From the NCBI GenBank assembly GCA_951406725.2, contig OX597817.1, positions 45,446,001 to 45,510,000 on the forward strand: 64,000 nt of DNA, written 5' to 3'. The translations under genes were made by a program, and so were the position numbers. Below, piece after piece: positions 9,883 to 48,509 of the stretch; positions within the stretch are counted from its first letter, which is position 1; each line of letters starts with the position of its first letter. The notes beneath the pieces are model-generated. The model ran no database searches, was not told the origin of the DNA, and was given only the letters and a program-made list of their open reading frames with translations. This DNA is from Octopus vulgaris. Its lineage: Eukaryota.

Positions 9883-10115
9883 TGGCGGCTAACTGGCAGA
9901 ATCCTTAGTACGCCGAGCGAAATGCTTAGCGGTATTTCGTCTGCCGCTACGTTCTGAGTTCAAATTCCACCGAGGTCGACTTTGCTTTTCATATTTTCGG
10001 GGTCGATAAATAAAGTACCAGTTACGCACTGGCGGCGATATAATCGATTTAATCCGTTTGTCTGTCCTTGCTTGTCCCCTCTGTGTTTAACCCCTCGTGG
10101 TTGGTGAAGAAATAG
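9883..10115 (+). mobile_element. SINE family A, full length
   Basis: Colinear with 15733-15965. Confidence 0.95.
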
Positions 10116-10505: not shown

Positions 10506-11042
10506 CTATACACAACAAATAAAGCGATTGCATAATAAAAAATAAAAATAAAATATCTAAAAAATTTCCTAATTCAAAAGTACTGTAATTCTTCCACTGG
10601 TGTACCAATATAATCAGAAAATGAATATCGCCAAAAGATTTTGCGACAGTCACACGAGATATGTAGTCCAAGATTATACAAATGAAAAATAGTAAAAGAG
10701 AATGAAAAATCAGTTGAATAAAACATAGAACATTCGACACAATGCCTGTATAATTGAGCATGAAAGCGGATAATATCGTTTGTATTGTATATTTATTGTC
10801 AAGAGAGAACTTATATGTAATCAGTAGATACAATTTTTCGACTGTTCAACTTTCTTCAGACAGAATATGCCAAAACAGTCATAAAAATATTTCATAAATA
10901 TATTTGAAGGAGAGAGATGTACCAATAATATAAACATTTATGTTCATACACAGAGAACTCTATGTGTACAGATATATATTCATCCGTGTAGAACAGATTC
11001 AGATACAAATTTTCGCTGGAGGTGATGTATATATATATATAT

Positions 11043-11860
<818 letters not shown>

Positions 11861-15499: not shown

Positions 15500-16050
15500 T
15501 TGTTCTATATTTTGGAGATGAGGAATTCCGTACGATATTTCTATTTGATGGATATGTGTCCTCATCTTGTTTGTTGTCACCACAACGATTTACTCTCCAG
15601 CCTTCATCAGATCTGGTAGAATTTTGAATCCAACTCTTGGTTTTACTGATGTTATTATTATTCATTAAGGAATTGAACTCGCAATCTTGAGGTTTGTAGC
15701 CTGCGCTCCTAACCATTACGCTATATTCCCATAAGGCGGCGAGCTGGCAGAATCGTTAGCACGCCGGGCGAAATGCGTAGCCGTATTTCGTCTGCCGTTA
15801 CGTTCTGAGTTCAAGTTCCGCCGAGGTCGACTTTGCCTTTCATCCTTTCGGGGTCGATAAATTAAGTACCAGTTACGCACTGGGATCGATATAATCGACT
15901 TAATCCTCTTGTCTGTCCTTGTTTGTCCCCTCTGTGTTTAGTCCCTTGTGGATAGTAAAGAAATATATATTCCCATGGGCAATTATAGAGTGAATTTTAG
16001 TACTTATAAACGTAATATTTTTGTATCCTTCCTTAATACTGGTTCCCATT
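15500..16050 (-). mobile_element. tRNA-headed element carrying a hammerhead remnant, interrupted by a SINE A copy
   Basis: Minus strand has tRNA-like tagcgtaatggttaggagcgc...gagttcaattcc (15730-15669), then CTGATGA-A-GGCTG...CGTT (15610-15583). Confidence 0.55.
15733..15965 (+). mobile_element. SINE family A, full length, with 11-bp TSD
   Basis: TSD tatattcccat at 15722-15732 and 15966-15976. Confidence 0.97.
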
Positions 16051-18993: not shown

Positions 18994-19097
18994 ACTAGGC
19001 TCGAAACGTAGTTTCCATTTTTCCCTTGCGTGAAACTAATACATTTGCTTGTCGTTCATATACCTCTCTTCGCCATTTTTTCTACAAATTTCAACTA
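18994..19097 (+). mobile_element. 5'-truncated copy of the CUGUNGA hammerhead subfamily element
   Basis: taggctcgaaacgta followed by aaactaatacatttgcttg, matching 25611-25730. Confidence 0.65.
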
Positions 19098-25516: not shown

Positions 25517-25559
25517 TGGAATGTGAGAGTGAGAGTGATAAATACATATATATGTATAT

Positions 25560-25730
25560 ATGTGTATTTTCTCTCTCTGCTTATTTCTGTGTTCCTTTTT
25601 GTTAAGAGCGTAGGCTCGAAACGTAAAAGACTCTCTCACTTCCCGAGCGTCAAACTAATGCATCTGTTTGCTGTTTATACACCCGTCTCCGCCTTTTCCA
25701 TTTTTGTTTGTTTTTGTAAATTCCAACTAT
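25560..25730 (+). mobile_element. Hammerhead-bearing element, CUGUNGA subfamily (core degenerate)
   Basis: cttt-TTGTTA-AGAGCGTAGGCTCGAAACGTA-AAAG; flanked by TA-rich arrays. Confidence 0.75.
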
Positions 25731-29692: not shown

Positions 29693-29741
<49 letters not shown>

Positions 29742-29780
29742 CATATATATGTGGATATATATATATATATATATATATAT

Positions 29781-29999
29781 AACGGGAAGCTTTATAAAAA
29801 TAAACAAAAGACGAAGGCAGGTGGAATACATACAAACAATTGTATTAGTATGGCGCTCAGGAATATAAATAGAACAAGTCTTTTACGTTTCGAGCCTACG
29901 CTCTTCAACAGAAAGATACACAGAAAAGAAACACAGAAAGAAAGAAGGAGAGAAAAAAATGCGTGCAGAGGCTAGCGATTCAACATGGCGTTCTGGCGA
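29781..29999 (-). mobile_element. Hammerhead-bearing element, CUGUNGA subfamily, in (TA)n
   Basis: Colinear with 25560-25730 and 47466-47590. Confidence 0.8.
29879..29916 (-). ncRNA. Minimal type-I hammerhead fold with variant core CUGUUGA
   Basis: TCTTT-CTGTTGA-A-GAGC(gtag)GCTC-GAAA-C-GTA-AAAGA; stems I and II perfectly paired, GUA triplet. Confidence 0.7.
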
Positions 30000-30150
30000 T
30001 ATATATATGGCGATATATATATATATATATATACAATACATAATACATAAATACATATACGTTCATATATACACCCATATATCCATGCATATGTATATAT
30101 GCATATAGCATACGTATATATATATATAATATAGATGCATATACATATAC

Positions 30151-30190
<40 letters not shown>

Positions 30191-46695: not shown

Positions 46696-47465
46696 GACGC
46701 ACATAAGCATATTATTACAAGTATATACATTATGTATCTAATAAGCACAAAGACAACTGTATCTGTAAGGCAATTAAACAGTAGTAGAATTATTATTTTC
46801 ACTTATCATGCAATTGTAATATTATACACACACGTGTGTGTATGTGGCCAATGTGTGTTTCATAAGTGCATTGACAGTATATGTCTGTATAACAATTAAA
46901 CAAGCGTACAATTATCGGTTTCGCATATGCAATTATGAAAGTAAATGTTTGAATTTTAAGTCTATTTTGGACTATAATTATCTTTTTAGATTAGTTCGAT
47001 AACAATAAAATGTTTTCCACAAAATTGTCTGTGTATGTATCACGTTTAAAATATAGGACGCCTGCCTTTATGATCATAGGCAATCATTATAAATAACATC
47101 GATAATGGTAAACACATTTTGTTTTCCATTGATGAGCTTTGGGCTAGGTTTGCTTTAATATATTGTTCTCATTCATTAAAAGTAATATATAATACATATA
47201 GTAGTAAATGTGTATGTATAGGTACATGTGATAGCGTAATATACCTCAGAAGCTTCCACGTGAACTATATAACTGTCATATAGGGAGGAATAATTCTAGC
47301 ATTTGTTTCTTTCTTACAAATTTGCACATTTCGTATACGCAATGTATTACTCATTTGGTAACAATTCTTCAAGATTTAGGTTCGAAAGTTACATATAATA
47401 TATGATGCAAAAATATAGCAAAATACAATATATATACGTACACGCACAAATGTACATACATACAT

Positions 47466-47628
47466 GAGTCGCCATTGTTAGCCACTACACACATTTTTTC
47501 TCCTTGTTTCTCTCCTAGATTTTTCTCTGTCCCTTTCTGTAGAAGAGCGTAGGCTCGAAACGAAAAATACTTTTTCTTTTCCTGAGCGTACATACATCCA
47601 TGCACACATAGTAATATAGATACATAGA

Positions 47629-47691
<63 letters not shown>

Positions 47692-47830
47692 ATGGATATA
47701 TGTATTTGAAAATCATACAAAGACAAAGGACGAAGACAGGTGTAAGAACAACAAACAGGTGTATTAGTTTGATGCTCCGGAAATTGAAAAAAGTATTTTA
47801 TATTTCGAGCCTACATTCTACAACAAAAAT
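47466..47830. mobile_element. Two convergent copies of the CUGUNGA hammerhead subfamily (47466-47590 +, 47703-47830 -) around a (TA)n array
   Basis: cttt-CTGTAGA-AGAGCGTAGGCTCGAAACG at 47533-47562; tttcgagcctac at 47803-47814. Confidence 0.75.
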
Positions 47831-48509
47831 GAATGTGAGAAAATACACCTTGCAGGTGTATATTTTATACTTGAGGTGACCACTGAGCAAACGATGTGTG
47901 TCTGATCGAATAGGCAAGTCTCTGGGTCTTTTATGTTACATATTGCAGTAGGCGCCTAAGTTGTGACCAAACTGTAATAATGTATTTCATGTTGAGACAG
48001 CAGCCCTAAAAAGCATTCAGTCAACGTCCATTAAAAATGTTGTTATACCTATGGCTGTCCGGGAAATGCTTATCAATCGAGGTAAGGTATTTTCTACTTA
48101 CATTTTCATAAACATTGAAAGAGAAAAATGGGCGTTGAAAGACTGGCGTTAAACCAAACAACATTTCCATTTCTAATTTTAAGTGTCCTATTTTTTAAGT
48201 GTCGGTGTGTAAGCTATTTTGTTTCCGAAACCAATGTTACCCAAGGCGTTATTATTGTAGGGAGCTGCCTTATTGAAAATGTCCTTTCAGAAGCGAAGAC
48301 TTGATATCCTATCAATCATATTTGATATAAGATTTTCAAGGTTTATAGAGATGTGATAAGACTTTATGTAGATACGTCAGTTTTTCATTATATTCGGAAG
48401 CGCACAAGTTTAGGTTTAGTAAAGCCTCTACCCAACAAAAAGAATTGAATCTAGAGAAGATTCTTGCTACTGCCACATTGAGCTCTAATTTTCTAGAGTT
48501 AGATACCTT

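Follow-up and report, generated by a model that had tools for sequence, protein, structure and literature searches.

A hammerhead-like motif with uridine at core position 6 in the terminal repeats of an autonomous Penelope-like element of Octopus vulgaris

The stretch of Octopus vulgaris DNA examined in this study, referred to as the window, comprises 64,000 nucleotides of contig OX597817.1 (assembly GCA_951406725.2, positions 45,446,001 to 45,510,000) and contains a hammerhead-like motif within a copy of a Penelope-like element (PLE). On the minus strand, positions 29879-29916 read TCTTT CTGTTGA A GAGC GTAG GCTC GAAA C GTA AAAGA, exactly as an initial annotation of the window had written it, including the U at core position 6. 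These letters fit a minimal type I hammerhead fold, in which UCUUU and AAAGA form stem I around the core CUGUUGA, followed by an extra A at position 9.1, stem II with its loop (GAGC-GUAG-GCUC), GAAA, a GUA triplet, and a palindromic ACGU replacing stem III. The hammerhead consensus has A at position 6, and both direct reading and the genome counts given below place U there (29908, minus strand); the predicted cleavage site lies 3' of 29884. The motif is part of a 5'-truncated 3' pseudo-long terminal repeat (pLTR) of the U6 element (29782-29990, minus strand), which is 97% identical to the consensus of subfamily c4 and 91% identical to the pLTR of a full-length element, L121. Its 3' end lies about 100 nt beyond the would-be cut, at a (TA)n microsatellite (29727-29781, no strand assigned) that forms the 3' junction and insertion target, and TA-rich repeats are also present on the opposite side of the copy (29994-30188).

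The numbering of hammerhead positions, what G8 and G12 do, and the exclusion of G at H17 are established and partly covered in PMC11014351 (papers are cited here by accession). The window motif has the base at 9.1, the G10.1-C11.1 pair, and the palindromic 15.2-16.2 positions without loop 3 that are described in PMC4209133 for minimal PLE hammerheads. Stems I and II close the core: among 19 hand-picked copies, stem II is invariant, with 98.7% of cells paired, and stem I consists of four pairs, one of which has changed on both sides. This change is a swap between C-G and G-C that separates two lineages (7 of the 19 copies; probably one or two events). The expected conservation and covariation of the stems was therefore found in part, as the invariance of stem II means that no covariation occurs there. 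Across eight subfamily consensuses, G12, A13, A14, and A15.1/U16.1 are invariant and the NUH triplet is kept with A or U at H17. Compared with the core C3 U4 G5 A6 N7 G8 A9, the motif departs at A6 only, with U6 in 57 of 58 copies of the sample described below, while the other six positions conform. Having the build of a minimal PLE hammerhead but failing at A6, it is filed here as a hammerhead-derived variant and not as a canonical member. An Rfam scan of the window returned no match at the gathering score and 28 weak matches, none to a hammerhead, and it also missed the canonical copy at 11096. In folding, the motif has unremarkable z-scores (-0.4 to -1.3).

The genome searched consists of 2.8 Gb in 227 contigs. 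Exact patterns differing at position 6 alone matched 17,610 times with T, 226 times with A, and 497 times with C or G, and reversed-control patterns had no matches genome-wide. Leaving all core positions free gave 19,333 matches, and an eye count of the 100 listed found T6 in 94. Exact-match counts, here and for the C4 and canonical cores discussed below, favour young copies. A hammerhead-independent sample used as its anchor a motif that lies downstream (34,653 genome matches); the first 100 places were taken and 94 analysed, six being dropped for short or duplicate flanks. This sample contained 66 copies of the U6 lineage, and 58 of them span the whole motif, with T6 in all but one and a free mixture at N7 (A 19, C 9, G 10, T 20). 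Forty arbitrary 10-kb stretches held seven copies with the motif, which extrapolates to roughly 50,000 per genome with a wide error. The earlier proposal that A6U predates amplification is upheld by the exact-match counts, by the hammerhead-independent sample, and by T6 in all eight consensuses, and the genome-wide tabulation did not yield a consensus with A6. Independent decay of A6 copies was rejected, as A makes up 1.2% of exact matches at position 6; the A6 copies selected by pattern are mostly scattered among T-majority subfamilies, the oldest cluster excepted. A table of contigs that contain the stretch, under four organism labels, lists no other letter at position 6; it also misses common N7 variants and was not used.

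Fragments of GIY-YIG and reverse transcriptase (RT) sequence lie upstream of some pLTR copies, and a protein search of the genome identified many near-identical long open frames. Twenty stretches were fetched around these protein matches, and the open reading frames (ORFs) of 1200-1214 codons among them contain DKG, YxDD, and YIG; in nine of the stretches the U6 motif is found on both sides of the ORF, in both pLTRs. One pair of loci (L124-L125) is a tandem array with four motifs and a period of about 4.5 kb. Eight intact U6 copies are 98.9-99.9% identical over 28 pairs. The unit of about 4.5 kb encodes, in a single ORF, an RT, a CX4CxxC linker (CSRPRCRTC in the L121 translation), and, at the C terminus, a GIY-YIG endonuclease (EN) with CCHH, and the ATG lies about 730 nt downstream of the hammerhead. 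Pfam recognised RVT_1 (E 1.4e-7) but not GIY-YIG, the endonuclease being identified from motifs, and the Atlas neighbours of the protein have the arrangement RVT_1/HTH_animal/GIY-YIG at 0.96-0.97. TA junctions at the ends of copies fit the (TA)n targets of Neptune and Nematis, and with its CX2-5CxxC type of linker the element appears to be an EN+ PLE of Neptune/Nematis layout. The assignment of the fold to PLE pLTRs in the initial annotation is supported, and its attribution to a non-autonomous retroelement is not: a non-autonomous retrozyme or short interspersed element (SINE) was rejected because the U6 motif flanks open RT and GIY-YIG frames. The short copies share a common 3' end with the element and extend upstream to variable points in the 3' untranslated region (UTR), EN, or RT; they are 5'-truncated ends of the autonomous element. 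Two loci, one per lineage (L024 848-1590 and L200 1218-1530), have RT-region fragments fused directly to the 3' pLTR with most of the element skipped, through either internal deletion or a template jump.

The subfamilies were obtained by clustering 217 of 245 collected copies with the motif masked, namely those of 140 nt or more in which the motif could be recognised, and copies fetched by A6 or C6/G6 patterns were removed before the eight U6-lineage consensuses were built. These consensuses are 62-92% identical outside the motif. Variable columns number 2 of 36 within the motif (N7 and H17) compared with 78 of 139 outside it, and 30 of 81 in the downstream flank. By parsimony, the 11 core positions show no changes, compared with 6.9 expected at the downstream-flank rate, and all six changes fall at free positions (four at N7 and two at H17). 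H17 is never G, being A or U in the eight U6 consensuses and A, U, or C in sister clusters of at least three, even though A-to-G is the substitution that should come most easily. The U6 lineage shows an invariant loop 2 (GTAG) as well. Judged from the sequences, the pattern of conservation leans towards a maintained hammerhead-like constraint on the rest of the core.

In the 30 best matches to an old A6 copy, position 6 is T in 11, C in 10, and A in 9, and a pattern for the old group had 575 matches, with T in 79, C in 14, A in 6, and G in 1 of the 100 listed (by-eye count). Within the oldest cluster there are essentially no diagnostic sites linked to the A6, C6, and U6 states (one site, p 0.01 uncorrected); separate A, C, and U masters are therefore inferred only from their frequencies, and age can account for part of the excess of C and A. 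Because the sister lineage, used as outgroup, has A6, the likely history runs from A6 through a phase in which A, C, and U masters coexisted to U6 in all later subfamilies. Divergence is about 10-16% in old U6 clusters and 3-5% in the two youngest. If the calibration quoted in PMC13282606 applies (a distance of 0.09 for about 25 million years), U6 would have persisted for tens of millions of years; the available text of that paper makes no mention of ribozymes.

The canonical sister family has 4,838 exact matches, a few of which are GTAG-loop A6 copies, and, starting from it, a second PLE was identified that shares 60-69% protein identity with the U6 element and has a 6.2-kb unit. In all 11 stretches with an unbroken RT-EN frame (of 20 fetched), the pLTR core of this second element is CCGACGA (U4C), and the C4 core has 9,087 exact matches in the genome. 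In the downstream-anchored sample, 19 of 21 full sister copies have C4 and only two are canonical. Canonical clusters have diverged by 9-16% and C4 clusters by 0.8-13%, so that the canonical copies look older. Parsimony gives one core change in this lineage compared with 7.7 expected. As C4 also occurs in a few older unrelated copies, U4C may have arisen more than once. Among the 40 stretches fetched, a set that did not extend to other PLE clades, no intact element with a canonical core was found. The intact sister copies (L334-L343 and L347; for example L338, 1891-1926 and 8093-8128, plus strand) have U4C, C17, a weakened stem I, and a long AC-rich 3' UTR, and they have a relative in the window at 11092-11126.

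Since the 3' ends of insertions lie about 100 nt beyond the cut site, reverse transcription must pass through the hammerhead. Apart from the 58 U6-lineage copies in the downstream-anchored sample that span the motif, two start at the cut, five downstream of it, and one inside the motif. Both copies starting at the cut show TA microhomology, an estimated 0.8 being expected from neighbouring truncations, and the 5' cut site is not the starting point of any of the 13 longer copies checked. A pile-up of 5' ends at the cut, as a fossil sign of cleavage, was thus not found among the 66 copies, the canonical copies being too few for comparison. Folding of the window motif predicts U6-A15.1 pairing and a rod that is more stable than the open form by 2.4 kcal/mol, and pairing of U4-G5-U6 with ACG is the predicted minimum free energy structure in six of the eight U6 consensuses; however, canonical versions have competing folds too, which makes the misfolding argument a weak one. 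A natural A6C hammerhead cleaves at 0.004-0.05 per min in 1-3 mM Mg2+ and at 0.2-0.4 per min in Mn2+ (PMC7151607), and both A6C and U4C reduce cleavage without abolishing it (PMC7151607, PMC3088659); a viroid variant with U4C has lower activity, yet supports infection (PMC3088659). The hammerhead of an anole PLE cleaves only in the presence of the element's protein, the dominant template is uncleaved RNA, and catalytic mutants insert normally in vitro (PMC11167929). That copies read through the cut site, together with the published mutagenesis, speaks against a fully active U6 motif.

The explanation we favour, with middling confidence and on sequence grounds, is that the U6 motif is a conserved but throttled ribozyme in the pLTR of an autonomous PLE with intact copies. 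Cleavage within the 3' pLTR would separate the template from the priming end, so that slow-cutting variants would be favoured as masters. A6U would lower the cleavage rate by weakening the CUGA U-turn and, according to the predicted folds, might do so further through pairing of U4-G5-U6 with the ACG that the dimer helix requires. Residual cleavage, assisted by protein and dependent on dimers, would stay useful, and C3, G5, G8, G12, U16.1, and a non-G H17 would therefore be kept; the sister lineage may have arrived at the throttled state through U4C. Several points weigh against this explanation. Canonical sister copies (4,838 exact matches) read through the motif as well, so attenuation is not required for amplification. 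The U-turn positions C3, U4, G5, and U6 taken alone show no changes where 2.5 would be expected, a non-significant difference, so the conservation may reflect the fold or protein binding and not chemistry, and many of the copies that went into the consensuses had been retrieved with patterns that include the hammerhead. The order of the U6 subfamilies rests on divergence and on terminal branch length in the EN tree, in which three rows were flagged for atypical composition (one of them also long-branched), and both this tree and the pLTR trees leave the root unfixed. The youngest U4C subfamily also has a weakened stem I (AAAC to AUAC), which looks like decay. In addition, pairwise mutagenesis of a type III hammerhead gave low activity for all single CUGA-turn mutants, with no second-site rescue except C3G/G8C (PMC9901934).

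It is quite possible, though less probable than a throttled ribozyme, that the U6 motif is catalytically silent and that its fold is kept for binding the RT protein or for placing priming about 100 nt downstream, the ribozyme having turned into a protein-recognition element composed of stem II, with its tandem G-A pairs, and stem I. The low activity of CUGA-turn mutants (PMC9901934), the rod misfold predicted with U6, and the lack of excess 5' ends at the cut site (2/66, both with TA microhomology, and 0/13) are all consistent with silence, as are the dispensability of hammerhead catalysis for anole PLE insertion in vitro (PMC11167929) and the success of Naiad PLEs, which thrive without canonical hammerheads (PMC8557442). 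The U-turn is, moreover, the only part changed in both intact lineages, and the stem II sequence is identical across them. However, in each lineage a single core change was fixed and no other followed, U16.1 stayed and H17 never became G, and the natural A6C and U4C variants have measurable activity (PMC7151607, PMC3088659).

Conservation might instead act at the DNA level, through an internal promoter or an endonuclease recognition site in the pLTR, with A6U and U4C hitchhiking on successful masters. A promoter has been located in PLE pLTRs (PMC6765202), hammerheads may merely parasitize PLEs (PMC8557442), and loop 2 GTAG, which a hammerhead does not need, is invariant in the U6 lineage as well. 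This is nevertheless improbable, as the variable positions are just the two that are free in RNA catalysis (6/6 changes at N7 and H17) and both partners of one stem I pair differ between the lineages. Least probable of all is that U6 is fully active, compensated by the GUAG loop, by flanking tertiary contacts, by Mn2+, or by the element's protein. The GTAG tetraloop is specific to the lineage with the changed position 6, and the rate of A6C in Mn2+ (PMC7151607) would be in keeping with compensation, but the cut site was read through in 58/66 copies, the published mutagenesis (PMC9901934) speaks against it, and a competing fold is predicted. Beyond the single motif, it can be suggested tentatively that selection has acted on PLEs to silence the ribozyme they carry: two sister lineages would have independently fixed A6U (via the A/C/U stage) and U4C and then out-amplified the canonical forms, leaving a fold that is either rate-limited or purely protein-binding.

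The U6 motif resembles the minimal hammerheads of metazoan PLEs (Cervera and De la Pena 2014, PMC4209133) in its presence in both pLTRs, the absence of loop 3, the palindromic 15.2-16.2, the extra base at 9.1, G10.1-C11.1, the predominance of solo truncated copies, and an expected dimer. It differs in that every core examined in the Fig. S3 list of that paper has A6 and the reported core change is a compensatory pair, U3-A8; the available text has no cephalopod entry, Octopus being absent, and its descriptor would miss U6 and C4 cores. The hammerhead of phage Bcep176 (PMC3088659, PMC7151607) also has a natural pyrimidine at position 6 and keeps low activity in Mg2+, but it is a single phage sequence with C and a full stem III, whereas in the octopus a family of >17,000 copies, intact elements among them, has U fixed. 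The U4C viroid hammerhead (cited in PMC3088659) shares the substitution of the sister lineage and, despite reduced activity in vitro, is still infectious; it is a viroid variant, while U4C here is fixed in a retrotransposon family. In the Poseidon element PAc of Anolis carolinensis (PMC11167929), RT likewise begins at a point downstream of the hammerhead and reads through the motif, with AT-rich targets and an uncleaved template, but the PAc hammerhead, which cleaves with protein, overlaps the start codon; in the octopus element that codon lies well downstream, and the octopus protein has the linker of Neptune/Nematis. Those EN+ PLEs (PMC8557442) have in common with the octopus element the RT, the linker, the C-terminal GIY-YIG with CCHH, partial tandems, and (TA)n targets; they are described with canonical hammerheads, and the likeness is one of layout and not of tree placement. 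The role of hammerheads in PLEs is considered an open question (PMC8557442, PMC11167929). Full-text literature searches found no natural A6U hammerhead and no study devoted to a cephalopod PLE hammerhead. Lünse et al. 2017, which lay outside those searches, reportedly lists about 150,000 PLE-linked variants and may contain U6 or C4 cores.

The 17-mer spanning stem II and GAAAC occurs in the window three times exactly and twice with three mismatches, compared with 0.03 expected by chance. The initial annotation had described stem II and GAAAC as invariant, which holds for the exact copies but not for the degraded one at 47802, in which stem II is altered; this minus-strand copy (47712-47867) best matches the oldest subfamily, c6, at 83%. 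The recurrence of T6 at 47537 and near 25599 was also described, and T6 is present in both, but both are more decayed than stated. The older plus-strand copy at 25533-25717 (best match c10, 90%) has C3T and a deleted G8, and the plus-strand copy at 47457-47609 (best match c9, 87%; core CTGTAGA) has lost U16.1 and so lacks the GUA triplet. Partial copies reported at 18994 and 47803 were located at about 18995 and 47802, the former being the 3' half of a copy truncated inside stem II (18995-19091, plus strand; best match c6, 79%). The best matches of the five U6-lineage copies in the window are spread over four different subfamilies. The plus-strand minimal hammerhead at 11092-11126, absent from the initial annotation, has a canonical core (CUGACGA; CTGACGA in DNA) and belongs to subfamily s7 of the sister PLE lineage (94%); its loop 2 differs from that of the U6 motif, and it is surrounded by a pLTR remnant (about 11030-11230).

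A match at 15692, with three mismatches to the 17-mer, was rejected as unrelated to the hammerhead; it lies in a tRNA-like stretch (15660-15730, minus strand). This stretch contains a B-box-like GAGTTCAATTCC and is probably the head of a tRNA-derived SINE. At about 15586-15610 (minus strand) there is an apparent partial copy of a hammerhead-like motif of the type found at locus L040. The reverse strands of L040 and L080 have further hammerhead-like motifs with canonical cores (CUGAUGA and CUGAAGA) and different stems. Locus L138 contains two copies, in one 10-kb stretch, of a motif with a 6-bp stem I, a short stem III, and the core UUGACGA (U3 without a compensating A8), at 9887 (plus strand) and at reverse-strand position 285; these may belong to a retrozyme family that has a third core variant. 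A metagenome scan gave three records (L321, identical in sequence to L323, and L322) with two distinct, unrelated minimal U6 hammerhead motifs that have their own stems I and II; these are single copies without a PLE ORF in AT-rich, apparently animal DNA, and they may represent either a family state or decay.

The octopus genome offers a natural series of canonical, A6C, A6U, and U4C cores in related elements, two of them with intact proteins, which allows retrotransposition to be related directly to cleavage rate by experiment. Standard descriptors do not cover the commonest hammerhead-like motifs of this study (17,610 U6 and 9,087 C4 matches compared with 4,838 canonical), and reports of PLEs 'lacking' hammerheads may therefore need to be revisited with relaxed cores. 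If PLEs do silence their own ribozymes, a large class of such hammerheads would be hidden from every search based on CUGANGA.
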